A stretch of DNA of 64,000 bases from Pseudogymnoascus verrucosus (taxonomy: Eukaryota). How positions within the stretch are numbered: position 1 is the first letter of the stretch; each line of letters starts with the position of its first letter. A program made the translations under genes and the position numbers. The notes under the pieces are model-generated. The model saw only the letters and a list, made by a program, of their open reading frames with translations, was not told the DNA's origin and ran no database searches. The stretch lies in the NCBI GenBank assembly GCA_001662655.1, contig KV460226.1, one strand, 5' to 3'. This document shows, in pieces, positions 36,269 through 64,000 of this stretch.

Positions 36269-37025
36269 ATGGCGCACGCGCAAGCACACCCCCCGCCGCC
36301 GCTTGAGGCGCTGAGTCTCGACGAGCAGCGCGCTGGGGCTGGGGGACAGGGCGGCCCAGCTCCGCCGGCGCTGGGTCAGGCGATGCATGCCCAGCAGGCG
36401 CCGCAGCAGTTGCCGCCGCAGATGTTTACGACGGCTGCGCAGTTGCTGGATTTAACTGATAGTGAGTCACACCTGCGTTGGTGGCTTCAGGGGAGAGAGG
36501 ATGGCTGGTTGGGGCGCGTTTGAGGGTGAAGATAAAGCGGCGGAGAGGGAAAGCAAAGAAGGGGGTGGAATGGGAAAAAGAAGAGAGGCTAATGCGTGTG
36601 TGTCTACAGAGAAACTTATGGTCGCTCTCCGCGACGGAAGGAAGCTAATTGGCGTGTTGAGAAGCTGGGACCAGTTCGGTGAGCTCCCATGCGTCATCCT
36701 TAAAGCCCCTATGTACTAACATTCCCCAGCAAACCTAGTCCTCCAATCCACATCCGAGCGCCTCTTCACGCACTCACCGCCACTGCAGTTTGCGGACGTG
36801 CCACAAGGGACCTTTCTGGTGAGAGGTGAAAATGTGTTGTTGCTGGGCGAGGTGGACCTTGATAAGGATGATGATGTGCCAGTGGGCTTTGAGAGGGGAG
36901 ATGTGGAGGAGGTGCAAGCGAGGGTTAAGGAGGAGAGGAATGTGAGGGAGAGAAGGGAGAAGGAGAGGGGGAAGGTGTTGAGGGGGGAAGGATTTGTGGG
37001 GGAGGATGGCGAGGGGACGTTCTAG
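36269..37025 (+). CDS. LSM1: Sm-like protein Lsm1, 3 exons
   Basis: [41 protein letters not shown]...FLVRGENVLLLGEVDLDKDD. Confidence 0.93.
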
Positions 37026-45946: not shown

Positions 45947-48108
45947 GGTTGGCATGCGGATTGGGGATTTGTTTGTTGAAAGATGGAATTGATAGGAATG
46001 AGGGGAACCACAGTATATATTTATGTATATGTGTTTAAGTAGATTTATCAAAGGAAGGAAATATATGATTAGAGAAAGAAAGAGGTAAAACTGCTTAGCG
46101 GTGTGGGGTTCCCACTAAGTTATATGTTGACAATCCGATCTCCAGTTTTTCTATGGATAGTCGAGGGGGAGTCTCTTACGCCTTCTGGTACCTTTGACAT
46201 CATCACGAGGGAATCCTTGATGGGGCGAGATGGAGGTGGTGATGTGGGGAAGTAGTAGAGTGAGTATTGGTAGTCATTGGTAGTGACTTTATGACTTCTG
46301 TAGATGGTAGCACTACTATAGTACTATAGTAGTGATTGCCTTGTAGTCATCTAGGAACGTGATTGGAAGTGCGGGAGGGTATGGGAGGGAAAGGGAGGGA
46401 GGGAGGGATGTGGGGGGAGATAAAGGCGGGAGGGGATGATAGGAATAGCCTGTAACAAGGCATCCCGAGGAGCAATTGGGGAAATAATTGGAGGCAGAGA
46501 AGGAAGGGGAAAAGAGTGGGCATCACACTCTTTTCTCTCTGCGGACTCTAGAATCCCTAGGCGGAGGTGGGTAGGTACATAACATAAAGTGAGAGAATAG
46601 CAGCAAATCGATGTACTACCACAGTTATATTCAGGTCGTATACTTGTATACTGCTCATGACCCGCACGCTTTCCCTTGCTCGTGCAATCGAATGACATTC
46701 GGCAGCGCCAAGAAGCGCGCGTGAAAGTTGAGCAACAAGAAATTAGGAAGATAAACGCACCAAAGCAGGACTTTGCCATGCGAGGAAGACTAAGCGATCC
46801 CAGCGATCCAGCTCACCAAGTGGAGACCCCGCATCCCGACCGGTACTCACCCCGGCTATCCACGGTGGCGTCCAGACGGGGTTTAGCGTACCGTCATGAA
46901 TGAACGAGAGTGGTCCGTTTTGGGGATTGTGGGGGAGTTGTGAGGCGTGTATTGATCAATTGGGATTAGTGGGAACAAAGCGGCGGGATTATGGGAAACA
47001 AGACGCGAGAGTGGATGCTTCATTTGGAAATGGAGGGAGAGAAGAGGATGTAAGGTGTGGTGTGTGGCTTGTTGGTGGTGACGTCATTATATTTGATTTT
47101 AGTGGTTGCGAGGGTGAGGATGAGAGATGGGGGAGCGATGGGGGAGGGATGAGGGAGGGGTGGGAGGAGGTCGGGGGTAAGAAATAGAGCTGATTGAGGC
47201 AAATCGGTGTGGCTTAACGGAGGGGTGATGTCATGGGAATGGGTATAAAATTGTAAAAAGTGAGGATTGGGCCTTGACTTGACTGGCTTGGCGATGCAGG
47301 ATACAAGACTCGACTACTATAACACGGGTCGGTAGTGAGGCCGAGTGACCACGTAGTAGTGTGTAAGAGACGACAGTGTACAAATGAAGTGTTATGTGAG
47401 AGACGAGGAGTGTACAATGGGATGCACTATATGTACGAGAAAGTGTACAGGAAAGAGTATAAATTAAAGATTGTGAGAGTCGAGTCTAGCATAGACTGCA
47501 TTGATAGTCGAGATAGTCGAGATACTATATTGCAGGTTATAGTGTGATTATTGGCTCCTCTACTCACAAACACCAACAGTCAAGTCTAGCCGTACAAGCG
47601 TCGTTAGTCGAGTCGAGTCCAACTGCCGGAGACACTAGGGCAAAACACTATAACGACTACACTCGACAACACTCTATAAAGACTCCATTCCACTCTCATC
47701 ACCAACAGCCTCATGAATACTCCATCCATCTCTTCAAAAACCTCAACCAATCGCCACCCCTACCCCTTCTCATCGCTCAATCCATCCCCCTTTCCCCTCT
47801 CACTTCTTCTCTCTCCCCCAATCTTCCAACCCCCCCACTACCCCCACCATCTCCAACAAACAGCGGATCTTTTCCTTTGGTGGGGTTGTGGGGTAGATGT
47901 GGTGATCGATCTCCCCACTTTCAGTATTTCGACGTCGCAAGTAGAGAATGAGTAAATGAGCAAACAGGTGCTTTAGAGACTTTTTATTTCGTATATGGAT
48001 CACTTCGGTGCGCGAATTGTTGTGAATATTAGTAAAAATGGGGGTGACAATTATAATACTTGTTGCGATAAAATGGAGAATAAATGTCGTATCACCACCA
48101 CCTAAAAT

Positions 48109-48644
48109 CAGTGTGCGGCGAATCACCCCCCGAATACTATTCGGCGATCCGCCGAATCATTCATATTTTTGAGGTATTCGCCGAATCATGACTCGAATCT
48201 GATTCGAGTCATGATTCGAATCTTTGAGGCTGAAATAGAGTGTATGGAATATTGAAAACTACGAAAAATATTTGACTATGCCTAACCTTTGTCTTGACTT
48301 ATATCTTCGACATCCTCATCGTTAACAATACACTCGCATTACTGTTATCTTCATCGGCAACATAATCATCAAGATCCTTAGGAACATCATATAGCTCGGA
48401 ATCACTCATAATAACAATGATTGTACTAATTGTATTAAATGTTAATCTAAAAAGCTATATATTAAGGACGGCGACAAGCCTTCACAGCTAGACGCTTGGA
48501 CATATTATATGTCTTGGCAAGTATTCGAATCATTCAAATACTGGCCGAATCATGATTCGAATCATTAAGAAATAGCCCGAACCAGATCATGATTCGAGTC
48601 TGATTCGGGGCGAATCATGCCGAGTCACGATTCGCTGCACACTG
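48109..48644 (-). mobile_element. Non-autonomous hAT element (536 bp)
   Basis: TIR CAGTGTGCGGCGAATC / GATTCGCTGCACACTG; TSD CCTAAAAT at 48101-48108 and 48645-48652; subterminal CGAATCA/TGATTCG repeats. Confidence 0.95.
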
Positions 48645-49129
48645 CCTAAAATAGAAAAAGGCTTGAGCATCTAAACAAAACAAAATAAAAACAAAACGCA
48701 AACCATAACTCAACAACACATTCTACTACAGCTTAAGGGAAGAAAAAACCATTAATAAAACATCAGCGCTAATTGATCATCTAAAAATAGATCTCATCTA
48801 GGGCTACGAGTTCTCGCAGCTGCCTCAACCTAACCCCAAAATTGGCCTTCGAGGGTAATATATTAAGGGTTCCGGAGATGAAGTTAATCTACTATAAAGT
48901 ATATATAATATCCTTCATCTTATTAAATTTCGTTTGTTGATAGATAAGTAACTAAGCATATTTTGGCTTGTGGTATAAGGCACAGTTCCTCGGGCATACC
49001 GAGGATTAGGCAACCATGCTTAAAAAGGCGCACATTTTACATCTAGATAAAGGAGACTACAGCCGCCAATTCAACTTTCTCGAAGATTCTCCACTAGCGT
49101 GGATACATTAACCTCGTTCGTAGCTCACT

Positions 49130-50923
49130 ATGGAAGACGCAGTACGATATCAATACCTACCCCTCGCCAAAGACAATAATGACGGTTCGACGCGCTTACT
49201 TCAGCTCTTACCCGGCGCAACTGGCGAACCGATCAAGGGCAGCATTGTGAACGTGAACCTCTGCGACAACCCAGGCTACGAAGCTCTGAGCTATTGCTGG
49301 GGCGATACTGCCAATACCATTCGTATTTATATTGGGAAAGAATATATCGACGTAACACGAAATCTTCACGACGCTTTAGTCAAGCTGCGCGACAAGGAAG
49401 ACCCTAGAACTCTTTGGATTGATGCCATCTGTATTAATCAATATAATGTTTTAGAACGATCGCAGCAAGTCGGAATCATGGGGCAGATCTACAAGCAGGC
49501 CAAGAAGACCTTGGTTTGGCTTGGTCTAGAAACCGCGAATACTGCTAGAGCTTTCGAACTTATCCCATACCTCCTAGCGATATTTGAGGAAGCGTTTCAA
49601 GGGAAACCACGTCCAGTTCGTCTTGATCTCCGTATTTTAAGGCATCCTAGTATATTGCGAGTTTATGAGCAAGTACGCTTGTTTGAACCTTTTATTCAAT
49701 TGGAACAGCGCCCATACTTCTCAAGAATCTGGATAATTCAAGAAATTGCTCTCTCGTCTAATAGCGTTTCATTATTTTGGGGGCAATACTGCCTATCCTG
49801 GGAAGAGTATTTCGCAGCAGCGTATACATTCGCTTGTCTCGAAGTTCGGAAAGCGAACCTTCACCAACCTCTTGGCGCATTCCCTGCGTTGGTCATGGCC
49901 GTTCTACAACTAAGAGCGTCGAAGAGCACATCGCTGATAAGCCTCCTGGACCAATATCGACGAAAAGACTCTACTGATCCACGGGATAAAGTGTTTGCGC
50001 TGTTAGGAATTGCTGGATCGAAAGACATCTTATCTCTGAGCTGCAAAGTTGACTATAATATGACTGTCGTCGAGGTCTATACAAATCTCGCTAGCTCGTA
50101 CATACAGAGAGACGATAACCTTGATATACTCAGTTACACTCAATGTGGCCCTAGTATACCCTGCCTGCCTTCATGGGTGCCCGATTGGACAAGCCGGGAA
50201 GATATGCCAATTAATTTTAGGGTACCAAACTGTTCAGGCATTCGTTTCGATCACCACGCTGGAAGCGACAGTGGCTGCGGTACAAGCATATATGTGAACG
50301 GAAAAACTTTAACTAGCCAGGGCGTTCTTCTTGACCAGATTACGAGAACCTCGGGTTTGATCGACAAAGCGTGGGGTATAGGCTGCTGCAATGCTCATGC
50401 TTGGGAAACAATTGCAGAATTGAAGGAGAGGGGTAGTTACGTCGCTGGAGGCACAGCCATGGATGCCTTCTTTATGACTCAACTTGCTGGCTGTCCGAAA
50501 CTTCAATATGATATCATGAAAGGAAGGTTTCAGGAGCTATGGGAGGAAGCAAAAAAGCATACTCCAAAGAAAACGATTCAAGGTTCCCTTACTGTGTCAA
50601 CTGCAGAAGGTTCACAGCTACAGAGGGTTAATCTGATACCAATAGATGACCGGGAAACAGGAGAGATTGAAGCTCTTCTATCGTCAAGCCTTCAATACAC
50701 CAAGAGGAGGCGGTTTGCGATGACTTCTAGGGGATACTATGGGTTAGTGCCAGCCAAAGCTACTCCTGGCGACCAGATTGCCATTTTGAAAGGGGCAAAT
50801 TACCCTTTTGTCTTGCGTGCGCAAGGGCAAAGCTGGAAACTTGTGGGCGAATGCTATGTACATGGAGTCATGAATGGAGAGGCATTTGATGCAACCGCCT
50901 GCGAGGAAGTGTTAATAGATTAA
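49130..50923 (+). CDS. HET-domain (HET-6-like) heterokaryon incompatibility protein
   Basis: YEALSYCWG, LWIDAICINQ...ERSQQVGIMGQIY, YFSRIWIIQEI, TDPRDKVFALLG, LPSWVPDW, LVGECYVHGVMNGE; intronless 597-aa ORF. Confidence 0.93.
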   Translation: MEDAVRYQYLPLAKDNNDGSTRLLQLLPGATGEPIKGSIVNVNLCDNPGYEALSYCWGDTANTIRIYIGKEYIDVTRNLHDALVKLRDKEDPRTLWIDAICINQYNVLERSQQVGIMGQIYKQAKKTLVWLGLETANTARAFELIPYLLAIFEEAFQGKPRPVRLDLRILRHPSILRVYEQVRLFEPFIQLEQRPYFSRIWIIQEIALSSNSVSLFWGQYCLSWEEYFAAAYTFACLEVRKANLHQPLGAFPALVMAVLQLRASKSTSLISLLDQYRRKDSTDPRDKVFALLGIAGSKDILSLSCKVDYNMTVVEVYTNLASSYIQRDDNLDILSYTQCGPSIPCLPSWVPDWTSREDMPINFRVPNCSGIRFDHHAGSDSGCGTSIYVNGKTLTSQGVLLDQITRTSGLIDKAWGIGCCNAHAWETIAELKERGSYVAGGTAMDAFFMTQLAGCPKLQYDIMKGRFQELWEEAKKHTPKKTIQGSLTVSTAEGSQLQRVNLIPIDDRETGEIEALLSSSLQYTKRRRFAMTSRGYYGLVPAKATPGDQIAILKGANYPFVLRAQGQSWKLVGECYVHGVMNGEAFDATACEEVLID

Positions 50924-51056
50924 TTCATGTTTGTAAAGGAAAGAACCGTAAAGGAATATCTCACTTTTTTCATCTTATCCAAGAAAGTCACAACTGAGTT
51001 TAAAGGCATGTAAGCGTCTCCTGTGGGTTGACTCCCTTTGTATAACCTGTTGGATA

Positions 51057-51485
51057 TTGGTGACTTCCCTCTATGCGGTCGTCCCGCCAGCGGCTATCTC
51101 TGTCATCCAACTGGATTGGCAGCCCATTGGATCCCTCTGGATGGCCGCCTCCGCAGCAAACGGCGTTGGCGGCAACGCTCTGGGTCTCGATCCCAAGAAG
51201 GGCGTATACCTCGCGTACGCGGAGGTCGTCGAATGGTTCGGCTCGGAGCACGATGAAGCGGTTGAGGCGCGGGTGATAAGCACAACCTATGCGATCAACA
51301 ATGCGACGTAGGCCGCGGGCTTGTACGATCATTTCAACTACATGGGCGATGCCGCCGGCTTCCAGGCCGTTTATCCCGGGTACGGTGCGGCGAACGAGGC
51401 GAAGTTGTTGTCGATTTCGAGGAAGTACGATCCAACTAGGACATTCCAGACTCTCTTGCCTAGGGGTTTTAAGATTGGAGCGTAA
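51057..51485 (+). pseudogene. 3' fragment of an FAD-linked oxidase (BBE/VAO-like) with an internal TAG at 51309-51311
   Basis: GGNALGLDP...INNAT*AAGLYDHFNYMGDA...YPGYGAANEAKLLSISRKYDPTRTFQTLLPRGFKIGA*. There is no room upstream for an N-terminal FAD-binding domain. Confidence 0.75.
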
Positions 51486-51814
51486 ACAAGACGGCTCTGC
51501 TTAAATTTTGGGACTTGCCCCATTTGTGTAAATCACGTCAAAAGTGCTTGCATATATTATGAGGCTCGCGTTCTAGATGTAGATACCTTACAGATGATGA
51601 TTGTCTATACACTAAAGCGATCAGCACAACCGCTGCATATAGTTATATTGTGGATATAGGCCGATTGCACGAAAGTTGATATCAATCGATGCCAATATCT
51701 GAAGGAGGCTCATTGCGTCTAACATGATGCATGAAGAACAAAATGCCGTATTTTGACAGCCTTGATGATTTGAAGCCTTGTGAGAGTGATTATATCACGT
51801 CAAATGGGATTATA

Positions 51815-51859
51815 TTAGTAGTTGGGTGGGTGATCACCACCGAATACCCACTGTTGTAT
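51815..51859 (+). pseudogene. 5S rRNA 3'-half fragment with Pol III T-run
   Basis: TTAGTAGTTGGGTGGGTGATCACCACCGAATACCCACTGTTGTAT followed by TTTTTTT resembles the 3' end of ascomycete 5S rRNA; no 5' half visible. Confidence 0.8.
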
Positions 51860-52087
51860 TTTTTTTATTTTACCAAAGCAATTTAGAGAAAAGACAATAT
51901 ACCGAGATGCTTCATTAATATCCTAAAATACCTATTCATTCAAAGACGTGACACAAGAGACGATGATTTAAGTGCAAGAATATTAGTAGGAATCGCAGTG
52001 AATAACACAAACGAACAAACACTAATTTAGCAAATAGAGTACGATTAGGGATTTAAATATATTTAAGACGGGTTGAGCTGCAACTTC

Positions 52088-52759
52088 TCAGCCAGTGAAT
52101 ACATCCTCCCCCTCTGCCGTCATAACCTCGAACATGCTTTCGACCTCTTCACCTGCAAAAACCTCAAACCAGAGAAAATATAGAGCGTCTAATCCGACTT
52201 TCAACCAGCCTTGCCACTCTTGTTCCCCTGGTGCTAAGTACTCGACTACCCTGACCCACACAGATTCAAGTCCATAGCTTTGATTTGGATCTTCTGGTCC
52301 CGCTGCTACAGAATTCAGAACAGCCTCATCGACCATGATACACACTCGATGTCGAGCATAGAGTTGGTGAAATTCGAGATCGACCCCATTATCTTTTAAC
52401 CATTTTGTGAATGCAGCTCTAACGTCATCTATACTTGCACCGTCTAAGCCAGGGCTCTCTATAACATCGTTTGCGTATCGTCTCTTCATCTCTTCATTCG
52501 GACCCGAGTCAAAGGGTGGTTCAGGACTAGGGACCCCAAAATTCCTTGGACTGAGCTCATAATCAATAGAAGATTCGACATAAGCATCAACTTTCGCTAG
52601 AAACAAAGGAAACTGGGCATCTGATTGTGGTGTATAAACGGTGCGGAAGATGGTGAAGCCCCAGGTTGGTTGGTGTAAACTGCGAAGGTATCGGCAGATT
52701 GGGCGCTGCCATTCCCGTTTGAAGCGTGGTGAACCTGGTATCACCAGGAGCGGAGACAT
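52088..52759 (-). CDS. Hypothetical fungal protein
   Basis: 223-aa ATG ORF with WGFTIFRTVY, LDGASIDDVR..F..W and CIMVDE motifs reminiscent of an uncharacterised ascomycete family. Confidence 0.7.
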   Translation of the reverse strand: MSPLLVIPGSPRFKREWQRPICRYLRSLHQPTWGFTIFRTVYTPQSDAQFPLFLAKVDAYVESSIDYELSPRNFGVPSPEPPFDSGPNEEMKRRYANDVIESPGLDGASIDDVRAAFTKWLKDNGVDLEFHQLYARHRVCIMVDEAVLNSVAAGPEDPNQSYGLESVWVRVVEYLAPGEQEWQGWLKVGLDALYFLWFEVFAGEEVESMFEVMTAEGEDVFTG

Positions 52760-53782
52760 GATGGGCCTAAGAGAAGAGGGGAGTAGGAATGCGATGTTGG
52801 TTTGAATATAACCTCCACCACCCTGGAATCATGATGAGGGATTTTTTCGCTGCCTCAGGCGGCCACAACCCTTCTAAATTAGGCCACAGGCTCACGGTTG
52901 TAACATTAGTGCTACCTTAACTGTGGCTTTAGCAATTCTGCTTAGTAGTAGTAACCATAGATAGCTTAACCTTTGCAAAATGCTCCATATGAATAGTCTC
53001 TGTCTTTCTACTTGTCCCTCTTTCCCAATCTTGATCGGCACACTAAATTAGATCTGTGAGGACCGATTCACAAACTATGAAGCTCTCAATTGGACATAAG
53101 CACAGCTTCGCATTGGAATCTGATCTTTATATAGTTTCTCAGTTCAAAGCGGGCGCGTTCCTTTTATACCATTTTCAAGCTCATCCTCACACGCCTTCGC
53201 TCGCAAACTCGCAAGCCGCAAAAGAGGAAAGTCGAAGATCACAGACGAAACTAGGAACTGTAAACCCCATCTCACCAGCAACCATCTCGCTCCTCCCATA
53301 GAATCAACAAAAGAAGAAGGAGTACTTTCCGCCGCAGCACCGTAACAGAGCAACAGTAGACGGGATGGCTGATTTCACGACCGAGAGCTATAAGCTCGGC
53401 CATATGTTAGTGAAAGGACGTACCTAGTCCGAGAATTAATTGTTCGGAAGGGGTAGCTTGGCGGGGTAGTGGGGGTAGATCAATGATCAGATCTCCCCCC
53501 TTTGATATTTCAATATTCCGACATCACAAGAAGCGAAGACGCAAATGAGTGACCACAAACTTCATTATTTCGTGTGTTGCCTTCGTATGTAAGTAAGTAA
53601 GTAAGCCAAGCTAGGCAATGCAAAGCAACATTTTCGTATCAGCGCCAGAGTTTGGCCGTACCACGTAGCGCAAGCAAGCAACAGATGTATACAAAAAAAA
53701 ACATATACATATTATTTGCGCCTCTAGACTCTTAGGAGATAGTAAAATGTTTCTGCTCTGCGCCCAACGATCTTTACTATCA

Positions 53783-54211
53783 TCACCATTCCCCGCCGAT
53801 GGAGTAGCGAAACACCCTCGTGAAAACTTTCCCTCCTGTTTGTCCCCATAATTTTGCAATACCCTAAAATCGTCAGCAGATTCAATTCAAACACAGAGAA
53901 TTGATTCTTACTGCGTTAGTGGCAACTCCTGTAAACATAACATTCAAAAATAGGAACTCAAAAGTATTGTTTCCTAACGGCCTCTCGCTGTAATCCAACT
54001 CTCGATTTACAGGCCGATAATCAGGCACCCTCCGATAATTGCTAGGCCAATTGTGAGGACTTTCGGCTGCCGAATGCTGATTTTGACGCGGGATCGGTGG
54101 TTGAGTTGTTGTTGTGCCATTCTCGGATCCCGTGAGATGGATCTCGTAGTCAGTTAGAATATGTTGTATTTCAGCGGTCGTCGCTCTCGCTATCGTAGTT
54201 GTATTCGACAT
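53783..54211 (-). CDS. Small hypothetical protein (2 exons), cluster member
   Basis: ATG 54211; intron after VATNA (GTAAGA...GCTGAC...TTAG); last exon GIAKLWGQTGGKVFTRVFRYSIGGEW*. Confidence 0.75.
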
Positions 54212-54340
54212 ATTAGAGATTTTAATACCGAGATAACCATAAGAAAAGAAAGAGGGCTGCGTTAATGTATTGAATAATATTGGAAGCTGGAGGTTCTGTC
54301 GTTCTTTGTGTCATGTGTTTGAAATTAGGCTCGGCCCATC

Positions 54341-54352
54341 CCCCACATTCCG
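54341..54352 (-). promoter_or_regulatory. Cluster motif CGGAATGTGGGG (copy 1, divergent promoter)
   Basis: CCCCACATTCCG on the + strand between the ATGs at 54211 (-) and 54479 (+). Confidence 0.7.
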
Positions 54353-54478
54353 ATGCGTCCTCCCGACAGCAGGTTGGCCACCCCGATCGTAATTTTCTGA
54401 TATAATGTCTAAATACACAAGCAAGCAGTATTGTTTATCCGGAAAGACCTACCGAAACACTTTCTAGAAATCACGAGA

Positions 54479-56092
54479 ATGGACCCCATCCAGCGCCTTC
54501 AGGAGTCTCTTATTGACCGCCGTACTGAGAACGTTCGCTACCGTCAAAACCAACTACAAAGCTTGCATGCTACTCTTTGCAATAGCGCAAATTTAATATG
54601 CAATTCGATTGCAGAAGATGCACAAGTTGAAAGCTCAAATGCCGAGGCTGAGACAGAGTATTATCTTTCCATGAATGCCGTGAAGCATTTCTACGAGGGC
54701 CTGGGCTTCGAAAAATCAATTAATGACGAGTACTTGATTGCAACAGGGATTGATAACCCTCAGAGACAGGTAGGATATGGTCTAGTAATTATTCGCCCTA
54801 CTACGCATACAAGGTTATATTCGATTGTATGCCCATTGGCGGCGGCTTTAGCGGCGGGGAATGTTGTCGTCATAGAGGTTCGTTAGTCCTGATGCTTGAA
54901 GACGTGTGCCTAATTTATGTAGCTTCCTGATACCCTTCTCAAAGTTGATGCTATCCTGAAGGAGGTCTTACCAGAAGCGTTAGATCCCGACACCTTCGTT
55001 ATTTCCGCAAAATTGATTGAGGACCCGTCAATTCTTTTATCAAGTCTACTCGTCGACCAAACGTCTGCAACAACAACAACAACCATCGCTAACTCGCTTT
55101 CCTCTCAAAACAAGCACCGAACAATTGCTATTGTAGACCGTACAGCAGATATTGAAGCTGCAGCAAAGGCAATTGTAACAGCACGCTTCAAATTTCAAGG
55201 CGCTTCTCCGTACAGCCCAGACCTGGTCATTGTTAATGAGTATGTCAAGGATGAGTTCTTTGCAACATGTTCAAAATATGCGAGCCAAATGTTTGTTTCT
55301 GGCGTGAAAGCCAAGAGGTCGAGAAGCAATGCTGAAGCCGAGACAAAAAAGTTCTTTGAAGACGCTATTGCCAAAGAGCAATTGTCAACATTTCGTTTTG
55401 CGGATTGTATCCTAGCGCATGTCACGGATAGGTTGGTTTTCTCGTCGAGATTTTTGGAATTTGAAGATTAACATGACTCAAGCACCTGCCTAGTGACCGA
55501 AATAAAAATCCACGGCTGCTACCTGCCCATAGTTACAAGCACCAGCATGGTTGATGCCATTATCAAAGAGATGAGGTATATCTACACCACTATTAACTCC
55601 AACTTTAAAGCTCTCAACTTACTGGTAATTAGGTCAAATCTACTCGCAGCTTATATCTTTGCACAACCTCCGGAAGCTAAATTTCTTGCCCAACACCTCA
55701 AGGCACATCTCACTGTCATCAATCAAATACCCGTGAATCTCCTGGTTGGGCCAGCTGCGCCATGTGGGATCGCTATGGAGTACAAGTACCGATATAGCCC
55801 CGAAATGTTTTCAATCCAGCGTCCACAATACATTCATGCTCTACCCACCGAGCTGTCGGTAGTTGATGAACATCTTGTTCCTGGCCGGAACCCAAATGGA
55901 ACCACGAAAGTGAAGCAGTTACGATCATTAGCGACGCGGAAACTGCCTGGGACGGGACAATCGCAGGGGCATGATATTGGATTCTTTGAACAGGGAATAT
56001 TGTTAGGGTTGGGTGTTGTCTTGAGCATTGTGGTGCCGGCGGCAGGGTGGGGGCTATGGGCAGTGGGGAAGAAAGTTAGGAGTTCGATGTGA
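54479..56092 (+). CDS. ALDH3/Hfd1-like fold protein lacking the catalytic residues, with C-terminal TM anchor (multi-exon)
   Basis: GLVIIRP...PLAAALAAGNVVVI; AIVDRTADIEAAAKAIVTARF..GASPYSPDLVIV; LAAYIF; hydrophobic tail GILLGLGVVLSIVVPAAGWGLW. Canonical introns. Confidence 0.8.
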
Positions 56093-56392
56093 TTATGTAG
56101 GAGTACTGTTTTAATAATAAAATCATCTACAACATATGTGCAGTTGCATACGGATGTGTTATCTGAGGGCGCGCAACCAATCTATCTTATTCTATAAAGA
56201 CTTCGGGTTTTATTTATTTTATAATATCGTACGAAACAGCGGGATTCAAACCATGTCACTATGTATGATGTCCGACTCCTATGTTCCAGCTTCATGATTT
56301 GCATTAAAACGATGATGAATATGATAGCTTAAACTTAGAAATGCCCCTAAAACCTGTACATATCAACTCGAATTAACCCAATGGATCCTTCA

Positions 56393-57335
56393 TCAAACAG
56401 CAGCTACCACCCTACCAGTTGAGGGCCACTTCCCAAGCGTATATTGGCTGTTGCACATATTTTGTAGTTCCCAGTCCTCGGCTCCCAACTCAGCTACTGT
56501 TCCTCTATCCTCAACTGAGCCACATAACCCAGCAACAAACATGGCTGACATAAAGTGATCATCAGTGGCGTGAGCATCCCTATATTTGGGAACTTTCATC
56601 AACATCGTCATAGCCCGCCGGAGTTCAGGACCTGATGTCTTTGTAATAGCGTCTTCAAACTCTTGTCTAAAATCAAGTAATAGACTACTGGGTGGAGAAG
56701 GCATGGCGAAGTTATCTGTGCGGTTTCTTATAAGTAAAATATAGCTCCCCGCCCGGATAAACTAATAACGTACCACGGAAGCGCAACATCTGGAACCATG
56801 AATTGCGATATAGATTGTGCACAGCACCACCAGAGCCAACAAACAGAACTTTCTCCTTGCGCATGGGGCGCAAAGCGGAGCCGACCTTCACATGAAAGTG
56901 TGGATCATAACGAGCGTTCATGGATATAATAGTTGTTGGCGGACAGCCCCCTGGAAACATCCGGATGAGAACCAAATATGTATCGTGTATCCAGTCGAAT
57001 TTCTCGTTCAGCTTTGCTTTGAAGCCCGACTGTTTAAGCAGATCTAGACATCTGTGCGACATCGGGATATCGGGGTTGAGGGCGTAAGGGACATATTTAT
57101 CGTGATGGACGTAAGCGACTGGTGATTTCTCCGGCTTGGGATTCGCCGCAATCTCAATTTCATCGCCAATTGTTGCCCAGTGAGCACCCATAATGACGAC
57201 GTGCTCAATGCCATTTGCGAGTGCTTCATCTCCGCATTTCTTCCAGTAGTCAGCAGAGGCAGACTCCTCGCCAAGCATCATGGTTGAACCATGGGAGAAG
57301 AAATGGACAGGTGTCAATTTGTTTGTAGATGCCAT
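56393..57335 (-). CDS. LigB/DODA-family (class III) extradiol ring-cleavage dioxygenase; intron 56716-56773
   Basis: FFSHGSTM, MGAHW, DWIHD, GSGGAVHNL, AHATDDHF: the conserved His ligand pattern of LigB/4,5-DOPA dioxygenases. Confidence 0.9.
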
Positions 57336-57468
57336 ATTTTAAAACTGAAAGACCGATAACGCATACGAAGACGCAACATAATCAAAGAAGAGGTTGAAAG
57401 TGACAGCTTGTAAGCTGAAGTCATAGACAATGGGCAGATCAATAGAACGGCTTCCCAACATTCTTGCA

Positions 57469-57566
57469 GCCCACATTCCGAGACTCGTTTTATTGAGTGA
57501 AATATAATGTGGCGAGACATTTATGTGGGGCCGACCATCCGTTTAGCCACATTCCCCCACATTCCG
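57469..57566 (-). promoter_or_regulatory. Cluster motif copies 2 and 3 in the dioxygenase promoter
   Basis: GCCCACATTCCG at 57469-57480 and CCCCACATTCCG at 57555-57566, plus a partial GCCACATTCC at 57546. Confidence 0.7.
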
Positions 57567-57850
57567 TACTTACCCCCAAAGTATGGGGGTCTATTGTCGG
57601 AATTCTTGTGGCTGCTCATCTCTCCTACATCGTTTTATGGGGTAGTATCACTGAGCATACTTCTATAATTAGTACATGGTATCGGATAGAGAGCTAAATG
57701 CCGTAAAATCAAGTTTTCGTGCTTGTAAAAGCCGCCAATTTTATGCTGCTGAAAGTGACAGGATTTGTACGAGCGCTGTCGAAACATACTTCGTGTCTCG
57801 TTTCTAGTTGTGGAATGAGAAGTGGCATATTATTTATTACCATATCTATA

Positions 57851-60800
57851 TCACTTAACTATTACACCTCTCGCCGCAGCCCCCAGCTCCCTTATTAACT
57901 GGCTTAAATTCTCCACTAGTGGTGGAGGCGGCGCTTCGTCTCCACCAACCACGCCCCTCAAGATCTTAACAATGGCGTTCATGACACTCCCCGGCTCACG
58001 CAACATGGCGATTTCCTCTGACGTACACCCATCAGCCTCAGAGACCAAAAAACACGGTATCCCACGTTGTAGCGCAATGAATGATTTCGTAAATGAACTC
58101 TCTTCCACATCTAACCGGACAAGCTCTTCCCCAGAATTATCACCAGCCTCGTCTACGCTATTTACACCTCCAACGAGTGGTAGCTCAGACTCATTTTGGT
58201 CATGCTGGGCGTTCGGCCTTAGACTCAAGACGCCAAACGCCCAGAATGTGAGCGCAGAGTGGTATACCGCGACGGCGAAGAAATCTCGCAATCCTCCTTG
58301 CAAACCCCTTCTATTATTCAGTAACTTCGCATAGCGGACGATCTGCCCGGCGTGAAACACAGCGGTTCGGGCTTCACGGCTTGCAGCCCATTGTTGGAGA
58401 GAGGGATAGACGCGTCGGGCTTCCTCTTCGCCTTCCCTGCCAGCGAAAACTTGTAGGCTATCGAAGGATACGTATAGATTGGTGATGAGGAGCTCCGTTA
58501 ACAGTTTGGATTGGAGTGCTATGCTTGATTGATTTTTTCGCCCTGGCCCCGGCTCGGGCAATGAGGCGGAGAAAGGCTCTAATAGCTCGCGTAGTTCTTG
58601 GTGGCGGTGTCCAAGCACTAAAAAGCTCGAGGAGAGGCGTATTGATGGATATGCCTTTGCAACCGAGTTTAGTTGGCGGTATTCTAGGATTAGGCCCCAG
58701 ATTCCGTAAGCGATGATAGAATGAGATAGGGCAGAGTCGATGGCTGCCTTGACAGAGGGGCTGTTTAAAGGAGATATGTCATGGAGGCATTGTTGTAAGG
58801 ATGGGATGCGCTCGTTGGAGTTGATGGAAGAAGTTTGAGTGAGGTAGGTTGATTTCCACTCGGCAGCTGTGCGGGCGAGGAAGAGGTTGCGGGATTCCGG
58901 TAAGGGGAGCGAGAGCTCGGCGTAAGAGATTATGGTGGGATTCATGAGCGAGATTGAGGTTTGGGCATCACGGATAAAGAGGTGAAAGACGAGTCTGTCA
59001 GATATTAGCAAATTTAGTTTGGAGCGTAATGTAGGCTGGGATAGCTACCGCTTAAAGGATTCCTGCTGCGCCCAACTCCTCCACTTATTCTCTAAAGCCT
59101 CACCCTCATCACCCTCCAAGGGAATAATAGCCACGTAGTTCGATCTCAAAAATCGACCTGCTCGTCGACACATCGTTATGACCGTCAGTGCATGACTTTC
59201 TGCCAATTCCATCTTTCGTTTATTACCGCTCCAAAGCCCAACATCTAGATTCAGGGCCAGGGCTTGCAACAGGCCAAGGTCACGCGTCATGGAGTTATTC
59301 TCCTCGCAAACTACCGGAAGTGATCTCCTCACAGCTTCATGGATTGCAAATCCTAGCTTGCGAATAGTGAAAGATGTAGAAAGAGCGGCACCCGCTGAAA
59401 CAATGCTACCTAATAGCTCTGCATTCTGTCCCCCAATCTTTAACGTCGGTGAGTGGATCCAAGTATCTGACTGCATGATATGGTATGCGAGGAAGCAATG
59501 CAGAAGGTTATCCAGTAACTCTACAGACGGGAAGCTAGACATGACTTTTGTGAATGATGACCTCAAACATGTACTTAGCACCATAGATATGATCTTGTCG
59601 CGACCCGCGGCATTGAGACTCTCAGTATTGACGTGCATAGATTCCGCGAAATGTGCTGCAGGACTGCTCATCTCGGAAGGATGTAGAGTAAAATTTTCTT
59701 GCTCAACTAATCCTGTGTCTGCGCGAACGGGCGTCCAGCACCAGAGTGATTTGCGAAAAGCCTCAATGCCTAGCGCAAGACGCTCTGCGACCTTTTCTGT
59801 AGGTGCGTTTGATTGTGGTGTGGGCATTTCATATTGCAAGGATGATATGTCGATGACCTCTTTGACATAGGCTGTATCGTAGACGGCCTTTCCTTGGTAA
59901 AAGTCCATGAGGGTGTAATCTTGATCGTTGAGTTCGAGATTAGATTCCAAGCCGAAAGATAAGACATCTCTGAGGGCCATTGACTGGGCGTCGGTTCCCT
60001 GAGAGACGGGTTGTTGGCCATTGAATGGCTCTAACGTGGTCGGCATCATGACCTCTCGTAAGAAATCGGCGAATTCGCTCTCGTCACAGTCTATCAATGC
60101 GTTTGATGATAGGGAGGTTTCCATTGGCAATGACATAGACATGTCTAGGAAATATATCAGAAAGGTAACACTTTATCTTCAGACGAGGAAGCTTACCATC
60201 TCTATTGTGGCTCTGGGCTGGATCTATAACATGTTCACCTCCCCTCGAAGCCAATTCACCAAGAACTAGATTGCTGCCCGAAGTATAATCCATGATATCA
60301 TGCTCCTGAGGCTGTCTTGGTTCATTCGCAGACTGAGTAGCAAATGTATCCTCAGACGAAGGATTACCAATATTTTGCTGTATGGTATCGTGAGAGCTGC
60401 TAGATAGTTGCCACGATCCATTAACTGTCGCGTCTGTCTCGTTATACTCACAAGTGACACCCTTAGCTTCACATCTTTGGCAAGGTTTCTCTTCTTTACA
60501 TTTCAGCTTTGCAGCTGCGCAAGCCTTGCATGCATGCGACACACGTCCTGGGCGAGACGGGCATGTTTTGCGGTGCTGGCGGTTGTCGGTGTGAGCTTGT
60601 GCATGTCTCTTTAATAAATCACTACGAGAAGATTAGATACGTGCACTGATTAGAGAAGAATGACATATTTATATTTAATACATACGGCCTGTTGAAAGTT
60701 TTGAAACAAGCCTCACATCGATATGGTTTCTCGGAGGTATCTAAACGTTGTTGTGGTTAGCACCAAATCTTTTCTGGAGCGGAGGCTCTCGAGAGTCACA

Positions 60801-60952
60801 TTACGGGAACGGAAGTGGCGTGCAAGATGATCTATCCTGGCATATGTCCGTTGGCAGACATTGCACTTAAACGGACCGGGCTGGACTTGATTCTGGCCTC
60901 GCTGATTACTGTCGGGATCGGGATCCGGATCTGTTACGTCGGTCGAGTTCAT
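57851..60952 (-). CDS. Transcription factor with two C2H2 fingers, a Zn(II)2Cys6 cluster and a fungal-specific TF domain (5 exons)
   Basis: FKCNVCQRTYARIDHLARHFRS-HTSEKPYRCEACFKTFNRP-DLLKRHAQAH; ACKACAAAKLKCKEEKPCQRCEAKGVTC; WIHSPT...WRSWAQQESFKR-LVFHLFIRD. Confidence 0.9.
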
Positions 60953-61032
60953 GGCTGCGAAGGGATTTTGATGTGAGGACCGGGAAGTTGTGGAGGAGAT
61001 GCGGAATATAAGGGAATTTAGAGGGTACTTGT

Positions 61033-61044
61033 CGGAATGTGGGG
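61033..61044 (+). promoter_or_regulatory. Cluster motif CGGAATGTGGGG (copy 4, TF/ALDH divergent promoter)
   Basis: Exact 12-mer about 80 bp upstream of the TF ATG. Confidence 0.7.
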
Positions 61045-61626
61045 GGTGCGGGGTTGGGGGCAACTAAGCCATATATAGTAAACTTGCCAAGTCTGGGGAA
61101 ATGTGCTCTTCAGCCAATGACGCATCAATTGGTCACGACCTTCCCAGGTCGCCAAGCCCCTTTTGAGAGACTTGATACATTATCGTTAAATAACACTGAA
61201 AGTGATAACGACACAATTGAGCGAATGCAGCACATAAATAGTGTAACTACGGTGTATGTATAAACACGTACACTATCCTTCGGTGTGGTCCACTAACCCG
61301 AGGGCAGTGAAACGGAGACCAGTAAGCCTCATGGCTGTCCCCGGGGGTTAAGACCATAAACCTATTGTTGTGAGTAAGTGACACTTGTGGAGCTTATCAC
61401 CTGCGAACCTATACAATCGTAGAGCCCCGTGAAAAGAGTAAAGGTGCAGTTCGAATCCTTCCTATCCCCCTATCCTCTTTTAATTTCCTCTTTCTGTCGA
61501 GGCCAAGACAACAACCGCCCTCTCACTCTGAATTTCCTCTCTAACTTTATCAGTTCTTCGTGCTATTTCTGTTTCATCTGCTGTGAATCAAATACTCATA
61601 CGGTTCTGTCGCATCCTACAAAAGCA

Positions 61627-63208
61627 ATGAATCTCTCCACTAGCCATCTCACCGGCCCTGTGAACGGCGAACTTGGGAAACTATACACCATCCCTGCTCA
61701 AATCAATGGCAAAGAAGTCATCCTATCCCCAGCCTTCGACGTCCACTCTCCCATTAACGGGTCTCTAATTCACCGTTGTTCCTCCGCCTCCGTCGCCGAC
61801 GCCCTCTCCGCCGTCACCGCTGCCCAGGCAGCCTTTCCGGAATGGCGCGACCTCCCCCCAGCTGCAAAACGCGACATCTTTCTTAATACTGCTGAAATAT
61901 TCAAGAGTAGAAACGAGGAATTGTTGAGATATATGATCGATGAAACTGGCGCAGGCGAGTTCTGGTCCGACTTTAACATCACACTTGCAGCGGATATCCT
62001 GAAAGATATCGCAGGCAGAATCTCAAGTCTGAAAGGCGATGCGCCGATAACAGGGAATCCGGGAACAAGCGCAATCGTGTATAAGGAGCCATACGGTGTC
62101 ATTCTAGGCATCGCTCCATGGTACTCCTCTCTCCATCTCTTCCTCTTTCCTCTCCTCTCTGGACAAAATGCAGATATATACTTACCCACCTTTCCTCTCC
62201 CGAATATCCTCCACATCACGACTAACATATCCTAGGAACGCACCCTACATCCTTGGCGTCCGCTCTATTGCCTATGCCTTGGCCGCAGGTAACACTGCCA
62301 TTCTCAAGGCCTCCGAGTTCTCCCCGCGCTGCGCGTGGGCCATTGCCGATTGCTTTCGTCTCGGCGGCCTCCCCGCCGGCGTTCTAAACACCATTGCGCA
62401 CTTTACCTCCTCCGCAGCTGCCATCACAGAAGCCCTCATCGCCGATTCGCGTGTCCAGAAAATCAACTTCACGGGCTCTACGGTCGTCGGGCGCATCATC
62501 GCCGAGACCGCAGGTCGGCACCTAAAACCCGTCTTGCTGGAGCTGGGCGGCAAAGCGCCTGTGATTGTATGTGAGGATGCGGATCTGGAAGTTGCCGCGA
62601 CAGAGTGTGCGAAGGGCGCATTTATGCATTGTGGACAGGTGTGCATGAGCACAGAAAAGATTTTGGTGCATAAAGATGTCGCGGCGGCGTTTGAGGAGAG
62701 ATACAGAGAGAAGGTGGTCGATATGTTTACCAAGCAGGGAGTGTTGATAAATAGGGCGGCTGTGGACAGGAATATGCGACTCGTGAGGGATGCGGTCGGG
62801 AAGGGGGCAGAGGTGCTGACTGGGACCGTGGAACAAGATCATCAGCTACCGGGGACGCATATGTCACCAATAGTTGTGAAGGGAGTGACGGAGGCGATGG
62901 AATTGTATAATACAGAGTCGTTTGGCCCGACGGTGAGTATTATTGAGGTAGAAACCGAGGAGGAAGCGGTACGGATCGCGAATGATACCCCATATGGCCT
63001 CACATCAGCAGTGTTCACGGAGGACCTCAGGCGCGGACTGAGGCTTGCAAAGTGCATTGAGAGTGGTGCAGTGCATATCAATGGGATGACGCTGCATGAT
63101 GAGACGATGTTGCCACATGGCGGGGTAAAATGCTCAGGTTATGGCAGGTTTGGGAGTGGAGGATTGGAGGAGTGGGTCAGGAGTAAGACGGTTACTTTTA
63201 AGAATTAG
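61627..63208 (+). CDS. Aldehyde dehydrogenase, vanillin/salicylaldehyde dehydrogenase-like; intron 62121-62235
   Basis: EPYGVILGIAPW-NAPYILG, LKASE, NFTGSTVVG, LELGGK (Glu), GQVCMST (Cys), ESFGP, GAVHINGMTLHDE, HGGVK.SGYGRFG. Confidence 0.92.
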
Positions 63209-63234
63209 ATAGGTGGGAAAGGCGAAAGCTTTCA

Positions 63235-63488
63235 GGAAGCTGCGACTGATGCAGCTTGATAATCATACCTTCCGTGTTTATAATTCGAAAATTCTGAGGA
63301 AGCTGCGACTGAGACTTATTTACTAATCAATCCTTCCATATCTATAACTCGAGAGCCTCGAGGAAGGTGCGACTGAGGCTTGCTTGATAATCATACCTTC
63401 CATATTTACAGCTGTAAAGCCTCGAGGAAGCTGCGACCGAGGCTGGCTTGGTAGTAGTTCCTTCCATATCCATAATTTGAAAGTCCCC
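63235..63488 (+). repeat. Array 2 of the ~64-bp repeat family (4 units)
   Basis: GGAAGSTGCGAC at 63235, 63298, 63362 and 63426; same core as the 27628-28010 array. Confidence 0.92.
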
Positions 63489-64000
63489 AGAGCGAAAGTT
63501 AGAAGTTGTATATGTGAGGAGATTTATTTTGGGAATGAGGATGTTATGGCCTTTCCGATGAATAATTCGCAGTTGCAGATTGTATTGAATGAATATGAGA
63601 ATGACGAATGCTAACAACGAACGTCAATAATGGCTGTGATGTAGTTTAAAGGAACAAGGTTATGTCTAACTATACGTAAGTTATGTATGCTGTACGATCC
63701 AATAGATATATTCCGCACTCCAGCACACTAACTATATACAACCCTCCACTCCCCTCCCTGTCTATCTCTACAACTTTTATAATCCTACAGACTCCGAAAT
63801 TTTAGCTTCGACAGTTCTTTTGCAGCCCTTGTTTTCCAAGCACTGTACTGGGGGTTTATTTACCACGGTTAGTACCATTATGCTCGCCAACTGCTCATTT
63901 CTGATTCTTCCTTGAAAGCAGTGTGGAGCTTTGTCAGCTTTGAATGGAATTTGACGTTGGTTATGCTGCCCACATCACCATAATGGCGGAGCGGCTCAAT

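Follow-up and report, generated by a model that had tools for sequence, protein, structure and literature searches.

Comparison with described systems

Fungal gene groups that resemble the one analysed here have been noticed before; the likenesses are drawn from annotation, not from sequence, and from those parts of the cited sources that were available, a scope that applies throughout. The subject is a five-gene region (g1–g5) at positions 53783–63208 of a 64-kb stretch of Pseudogymnoascus verrucosus contig KV460226.1, hereafter the window, which encodes a 126-aa protein (g1), an aldehyde dehydrogenase (ALDH)-like protein (g2), a putative LigB/DODA extradiol dioxygenase (g3), a transcription factor (g4) and an intact ALDH (g5). 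In Grosmannia clavigera, LPPE cluster 2 comprises an S15 peptidase, a predicted protein, a ring-opening dioxygenase, a dehydrogenase of the PutA family, a cupin and a short-chain dehydrogenase/reductase (PMC3091685, Table 6); after pine phloem extract only the cupin was significant, and phenolic degradation was proposed. By annotation it matches the parent cluster described below, with S15 peptidase, dioxygenase, cupin and a weak 'PutA family dehydrogenase' (E = 2e-13) adjacent; the available text notes no regulator, motif or pseudoenzyme, and its authors deemed the cluster not conserved. Unlike cluster 2, the window holds g5 and has neither S15 peptidase nor cupin within its 64 kb (792 bp are visible past g5), whereas related loci have both.

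Bipolaris cookei carries a cluster induced in sorghum (Bc_04816–04820; PMC5722872) with ALDH, ring-opening dioxygenase and S15 peptidase annotations, the first two of which it shares with the window (its ALDH may be of either the g2 or the g5 type), plus a galactonate dehydratase; the available text assigns the cluster no function. In F. oxysporum f. sp. medicaginis, a major facilitator superfamily (MFS) protein, a 292-aa LigB protein and an unknown protein of 123 aa, whose gene numbers lie close together, are all root-induced (PMC5094085), and we infer that they are cluster orthologues; their gene identifiers were not found in the supplement of that article. Gluck-Thaler and Slot (2018; bioRxiv 10.1101/184242) described ARD (aromatic ring-opening dioxygenase) cluster models enriched in plant-associated Pezizomycotina and cautioned that some such clusters may be biosynthetic; the class is purely computational, and its model contents may already include the present gene set. 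The fungal meta-cleavage pathway itself has been called uncharacterised (PMC8896014). The preliminary description of the region, made from its sequence, did not recognise a described pathway, which overstated its novelty: the same annotation mix occurs in PMC3091685 and PMC5722872 and the class in bioRxiv 10.1101/184242, with biochemistry not found in the available parts of these sources. A description of the cluster was likewise not found in the available parts of PMC10512309, PMC12704424, PMC8120277, PMC10433936, PMC4981995, PMC3680317 and PMC10735191.

Regulatory parallels come from QutA/QutR, GaaR/GaaX and TanR/TanX (PMC10512348), in which a zinc-cluster activator is likewise clustered with an enzyme-derived, supposedly inactive ligand-binding protein. 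Whereas QutR, GaaX and TanX derive from AROM, g2 descends from class 3 ALDHs and has a hydrophobic tail; the gene it pairs with is g1, not the activator.

Four of the genes belong to a widespread cluster

The five genes of the window are not the conserved unit; g1–g4 are part of a cluster whose order is reshuffled and which occurs in several classes of Pezizomycotina. Scanning metagenomes with an alignment of 34 LigB sequences yielded 190 relatives, of which the best 80 loci were analysed, giving 59 groups after dereplication. Among these groups g4 was present in 37, g2 in 20, g1 in 19 and g5 in none. Many of the contigs were short. The 18 groups of at least 13 kb had g4 and a CocE/S15 hydrolase in 15 each, a Cupin_2 protein and an FAD monooxygenase (FMO) with an acetoacetate-decarboxylase-family (ADC) domain in 14 each, g2 in 13, g1 in 12, MFS in 8, FAH in 7 and, again, g5 in none. 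All four genes g1–g4 lay within one locus in 13 of the 59 groups, which fits the ARD definition of a dioxygenase anchor with at least three neighbours conserved across distant fungi. Gene order was reshuffled among loci; in representative loci g1 and g2 stood head-to-head in 15 of 15 cases and g3 and g4 were divergent in 30 of 35. Named genomes showed the same linkage, with g1 and LigB 8 locus tags apart in Cadophora malorum, g2 and LigB adjacent in Cudoniella, a separation of 6 in Elasticomyces and, in line with these, seemingly a shared contig in Rutstroemia.

The preliminary description took the five genes as one pathway unit and named unlinked homologues as evidence against it. Linkage across classes holds for four of the genes, while g5 occurs in 0 of the 80 loci and five other families (CocE, cupin, FMO–ADC, FAH and MFS), none of them present in the window, are regular members. 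The Pseudogymnoascus region is thus a trimmed, genus-specific variant of a widespread, noticed but little-characterised cluster.

Among the additional families, the FMO has a decarboxylative vanillate 1-hydroxylase as its nearest solved relative, the hydrolase falls in the CocE family and the cupin resembles PDB 3es1/8x0u; the recurrent neighbour families of the related loci include no backbone synthase. VdQase was rejected as the cluster cupin, being a different quercetinase-like protein from a 1047-residue open reading frame (ORF), and a flavonol-depside route is therefore unsupported. The fusion of the FMO, which resembles salicylate and vanillate hydroxylases, to the ADC domain recurs, being present in locus L027 (342–2621) and in 19 further groups. 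In 3 of the 59 groups (L016, L049 and L061) a histidinol-dehydrogenase-like gene (PF00815) sits inside or beside the cluster and may be another recruited aldehyde-oxidising gene.

Gene models in the window

The five genes are intact and fill exactly 53783–63208, all introns being GT–AG and the spliced models free of internal stops. RNA-like contigs of a related strain have three introns spliced out, namely those of g1 and g3 and the first of g2, and a loose end in them is also compatible with g2 intron 3; these contigs come from a run guessed to be RNA and speak to splicing, not to expression levels or co-induction. One contig of a run with DNA-like coverage spans 52995–63401. Pfam labels agree with the kinds of gene proposed earlier, with Aldedh matches for g2 (weak, E = 1.9e-6) and g5 (E = 8e-99), LigB for g3, and zf-C2H2, Zn_clus and Fungal_trans for g4. 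The proposed layout of two divergent promoters stands for g1/g2 and g4/g5 and has to be extended by a third, separate promoter for g3. The region is a genuine fungal gene group and, judging by the predicted sites described below, probably a jointly regulated one.

The dioxygenase

The g3 gene (56393–57335, minus strand; exons 57335–56774 and 56715–56393) encodes a 294-aa putative class III extradiol dioxygenase, which by its likeness to the DODA/YgiD family would open catechols extradiol-wise. It is identical to the annotated P. verrucosus protein P0318, so that the window belongs to this Leotiomycete genus. Alignment to DODA and YgiD places H15, H52, H241 and H173 as the set of metal-ligand and active-site histidines; H15, H52 and H173 are invariant in 34 of 34 homologues and the third ligand histidine is nearly so. 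Exon 1 scored 45 bits against PF02900 (gathering score, 26.3), and the closest solved structures are 4,5-DOPA dioxygenases (DODA and YgiD). The protein nonetheless lies outside the YgiD/4,5-DOPA equivalog NF007914, with 64.3 bits versus a cut-off of 233 for P0318. After H173 it reads HNLY, as does YgiD, while plant DODA structures have an HP motif. Endoconidiophora EpCDO3 (PMC8896014) is likened to g3 by description only.

In a midpoint-rooted tree of 53 rows (52 selected named homologues), g3 and the other cluster copies from Pseudogymnoascus formed one group (100/100) within a clade of Leotiomycetes; long-distance horizontal transfer is not indicated, as g3 nests among Leotiomycete sequences. 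A second Pseudogymnoascus LigB paralogue (P0023, P0159 and P0167) groups with Rutstroemia, and the cluster genes absent from the window might lie around it. Public LigB models from Pseudogymnoascus include several of 312 aa (P0013, P0323, P0324, P0326 and P0328); in P0013 this length results from read-through of an intron that is spliced in the RNA-like contigs.

A class-3-ALDH-derived pseudoenzyme and its head-to-head neighbour

The g2 gene (54479–56092, plus strand; exons 54479–54877, 54923–55431, 55483–55575 and 55633–56092) encodes a 486-aa pseudo-dehydrogenase derived from class 3 ALDHs, with a C-terminal hydrophobic helix (hydrophobic tail at residues 456–474). Its family numbers 475 representatives at E ≤ 0.001, and 37 near-full-length members were taken from the 150 listed. 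The catalytic cysteine is absent from all 37, in which the column holds P (27), S (4), A (2) or else Y, V, T or H; in alignment to ALDH3A1 the catalytic Asn and Glu are replaced or deleted and the NAD-binding glycine motif is deleted. Lacking the Cys, Glu, Asn and glycine motif of an active ALDH, g2 is, as judged from its residues, not a dehydrogenase, which bears out the pseudoenzyme proposed earlier. The family has invariant or nearly invariant residues of its own (R201, S223 and P227 in 37/37, R216 in 35/37 and H110 in 30/37), so it is under selection to do something. The model of homologue P0362 (48% identical to g2; pLDDT 91.4) has the class 3 ALDH fold with a long C-terminal helix, its top Foldseek matches being FALDH and ALDH3A1 (TM ~0.65).

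Its head-to-head neighbour g1 (53783–54211, minus strand; exons 54211–53912 and 53863–53783) encodes a conserved 126-aa protein with 11 homologues, present in 25 of the 80 best related loci. No family match was found in Pfam, or for a homologue in NCBIfam or the ESM Atlas, and the fold model (pLDDT 56.5, pTM 0.17) was too poor to use. A literature search, whose coverage excluded most subscription journals, returned no report of an ALDH3-like protein without the catalytic cysteine or of its pairing with g1.

The regulator, the dioxygenase and the g1/g2 pair are the parts still linked after most enzymes were lost in Pseudogymnoascus, and this continued linkage suggests that g1/g2 serve a core function so far overlooked. 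We tentatively suggest, at somewhat less than even odds and as the weakest step of our interpretation, that g2 and g1 form a membrane-attached aldehyde-binding unit that would sense or hold the inducer or a reactive semialdehyde. A somewhat unlikely alternative is that g2 has neofunctionalised into a non-redox enzyme (a hydrolase, isomerase or semialdehyde carrier) with g1 as its accessory subunit. The family's own conserved residues would suit such an enzyme, as would the keeping of g2 here after the loss of five enzyme or transporter genes, but no catalytic set is recognisable, the NAD-binding motif is gone and retention beside a regulator suits a regulatory role equally well.

A genus-level aldehyde dehydrogenase

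The g5 gene (61627–63208, plus strand; exons 61627–62120 and 62236–63208) encodes a 488-aa ALDH with intact catalytic motifs and is a Pseudogymnoascus-specific member of the region. Its best matches, from exon 2, are salicylaldehyde and vanillin dehydrogenases (PDB 6qhn, 9ihb and 4jz6; E = 3e-89, 2e-86 and 6e-73), placing it in that type by sequence match and motifs. The idea that it oxidises the ring-cleavage semialdehyde fared poorly, since the 99%-identical protein P0186 falls far below the 2-hydroxymuconic semialdehyde dehydrogenase cut-offs (TIGR03216, 251 versus 693 bits; HpaE, 275 versus 638 bits). These bacterial dehydrogenases resemble g5 in sequence and catalytic motifs; g5 itself is one of a large family in fungi whose members are mostly unlinked, and its substrate class is a prediction.

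In the best 80 of the 190 related loci the closest approach to g5 was a loose match at E = 0.4, yet its distance from the cluster-type LigB is two locus tags or accessions in each of the 11 named Pseudogymnoascus genomes listed; from these counts together we take it to be a genus-level recruit. Two further Pseudogymnoascus strains had LigB among the matches listed and not g5. The gene sits opposite the g4 promoter, a place held elsewhere by g3. We consider it unlikely that g5 is merely a passenger, carried beside g4 since the Pseudogymnoascus ancestor and outside the regulon of a four-gene remnant. Its absence from all 80 loci would fit a passenger, as would the finding that the best g5 and LigB matches lie on separate contigs in all 6 named genomes from outside Pseudogymnoascus that were in both top-120 lists (unlisted paralogues could be linked) and the position of the shared promoter site, 81 bp from g4 and 582 bp from g5. 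Against this stand the linkage in all 11 named genomes, with g5 87–99% identical where compared, a variant site within the g5 intron and probable substrates that suit an aromatic pathway.

A composite promoter site and its candidate factor

The g4 gene (57851–60952, minus strand; exons 60952–60805, 60740–60686, 60621–60197, 60144–59049 and 58994–57851) encodes a transcription factor of 955 aa that combines two C2H2 fingers with a Zn2Cys6 cluster and a middle region of the fungal transcription factor kind. The 13-mer CCCCCACATTCCG occurs three times in the 64 kb, even with one mismatch allowed, against 0.11 copies expected, and three copies were reached in 0 of 100 shuffles. Each promoter holds one copy: CGG-AAT-GTGGGGG (54340–54352, minus strand) midway between the divergent genes g1 and g2, a full site (57554–57566) with a shorter copy (57470–57481) in the g3 promoter (minus strand), and a site in the g4/g5 divergent promoter (61033–61045, plus strand). 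A single variant, CGT-GAT-GTGGAG, lies in the g5 intron (62209–62220, minus strand), its CGT having been accepted after orthologous promoters showed it.

The 13-mer was chosen from the window promoters themselves, and the fair test is therefore independent recovery from orthologous promoters. De novo expectation maximization on 58 g2 and g3 orthologue promoters, with the window excluded, returned GGgAtGTGGaGGaG. Scored over the whole window, the resulting position weight matrix (PWM) placed the three promoter sites at ranks 2, 3 and 8 and the g5-intron site at rank 4. Upstream of cluster genes, GTGG(A/G)G was preceded by CGG at exactly 3 nt in 32 of 242 cases, with 1–13 cases at each of the other ten spacings; the same spacing was found in 11 of 349 hexamers within genes and 5 of 205 in other DNA. 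Counting CG(G/T), the CGT variant having been admitted after sites were seen, the composite site occurred upstream of g3 in 15/43, CocE in 9/22, FMO in 6/14, g1 in 6/16, g2 in 5/16, MFS in 4/11, g4 in 5/33, cupin in 3/22 and FAH in 1/9, compared with 5/325 control windows. The shared promoter motif noted earlier is thus re-found in orthologous promoters, and its conservation supports a self-regulated cluster around an extradiol-type dioxygenase, in which the regulation is predicted.

The finger helices of g4 are RIDHLAR and RPDLLKR, and the types RxDHLxR and DLLxRH are kept in those g4 orthologues where the pattern search found them. The general C2H2 recognition code would have these helices read GTG-G(A/G)G, and CGG is a known target of zinc clusters; the composite CGG-N3-GTGG(A/G)G is accordingly the site expected for the two domains of g4. 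We found no report of this site in the literature, within a coverage that left out most subscription journals. We judge it improbable that the motif serves as a site for CreA-type or other C2H2 factors in general and that the cluster lacks self-regulation: the hexamer also fits the CreA consensus, SYGGRG, and is common on its own (668 sites in 533 kb of DNA), but the fixed CGG spacing stands out only upstream of cluster genes, the window has three identical 13-mers and g4 travels with the cluster.

Proposed pathway

We consider it fairly probable that the region is the Pseudogymnoascus form of a Pezizomycotina regulon that detoxifies or catabolises a plant phenolic by extradiol ring cleavage. 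In this scheme g4 would bind CGG-N3-GTGG(A/G)G, its C2H2 pair on the G-rich hexamer and its zinc cluster on CGG, and activate both the cluster and itself; conservation of the site is observed. By analogy with its family, g3 would open the ring of a substituted catechol beside the diol, yielding a muconic semialdehyde. In other fungi, where the full, observably linked cluster occurs, a CocE-type hydrolase would first cleave an ester to free an aromatic acid, which the FAD monooxygenase would then hydroxylate with decarboxylation, giving a catechol or quinol; the cupin, ADC domain and FAH would last process the opened ring, both chemistry and order being putative. In Pseudogymnoascus, entry would most likely be through g5, which would oxidise hydroxybenzaldehydes; the resulting acids would reach g3 either as they are or once unlinked genes have demethylated or hydroxylated them. 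The opened ring would be the end product or be handled by unlinked genes, and g2 with g1 would serve as the membrane-attached aldehyde-binding unit for inducer or semialdehyde. Induction by plant material is reported for the look-alike clusters, namely G. clavigera cluster 2, that of B. cookei and the F. oxysporum f. sp. medicaginis neighbours.

Several observations weigh against this interpretation, among them the fit of the hexamer to a CreA site and the far greater closeness of the site at 61033 to g4 than to g5. The top PWM match of the window lies outside the cluster, at 36898, and only a minority of orthologous promoters have the composite site, as the counts for g3 and FAH illustrate. 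A tail-anchored g2 is hard to reconcile with a QutR-type nuclear repressor, none of the downstream enzymes lies within the window, and no biochemical or knockout study of this cluster type was found in the literature. In C. gregata, an exception among named genomes, the g2 homologue was found on another contig and g1 lies 254 tags from LigB. In Ceratocystidaceae, the DODA-like CDO3 is flanked by unrelated genes (PMC8896014), so such enzymes can work without a cluster, and A. niger grows on gallic acid without all 17 predicted ring-cleavage genes (PMC10512348), so gallate is not a required substrate there.

That the cluster is instead biosynthetic or tailoring, making a ring-cleaved product (a pyrone or betalamic-acid-like compound) with no toxin breakdown, is the least probable alternative: it can draw on the 4,5-DOPA dioxygenases nearest to g3, the caution of the ARD survey and the absence of FAH and ADC from the window, but the recurrent neighbours include no backbone synthase, FAH, ester hydrolases and decarboxylative hydroxylases typify catabolism, induction is reported by plant extract or host tissue, and HNLY after H173 is YgiD-like, unlike the HP of plant DODA structures.

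A bolder extension would make the cluster family the missing fungal meta-cleavage pathway for plant phenolics, with a composite-site hybrid factor gated by a membrane-anchored dead class 3 ALDH and a 126-aa orphan that bind an aromatic aldehyde or semialdehyde; taken as a whole, this is speculative and quite unlikely.

Surroundings of the cluster

Upstream of the cluster lies a single-exon HET-domain gene (49124–50923, plus strand; ~597 aa; PF06985, E = 2e-32), present in 0 of the 80 related loci. An ORF of up to 246 codons adjoins g1 (52088–52828, minus strand), with no Pfam match and no counterpart found in the related loci. Between them, a short element at 51782–51866 has very high depth in the DNA-like run, a T run at its end and a weak 5S rRNA match (13 bits, E = 4.2, under the gathering score); it is possibly a 5S-derived dispersed repeat. 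Directly past g5, at 63223–63490, four degenerate tandem copies of a 64-bp unit match many other contigs of run X5, and the unit looks like a dispersed repeat family. ARAGORN found no tRNA, and Rfam gave nothing at E ≤ 0.1 in 48000–64000.

Implications

The region is less new than first supposed, and the general pathway does not take the five-gene form seen here. The cluster seems, by analogy with its look-alikes, to switch on in plant tissue, and it probably opens plant aromatics by a route that has yet to be elucidated in fungi. By supplying candidates for the gene set and the regulator, together with a predicted binding site, the conserved cluster makes the question of fungal meta-cleavage testable. 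In several fungi associated with plants, host tissue is reported to induce look-alike clusters; the pathway may thus matter for the way such fungi cope with plant defence phenolics, and it may also bear on the turnover of lignin-derived aromatics in soil.

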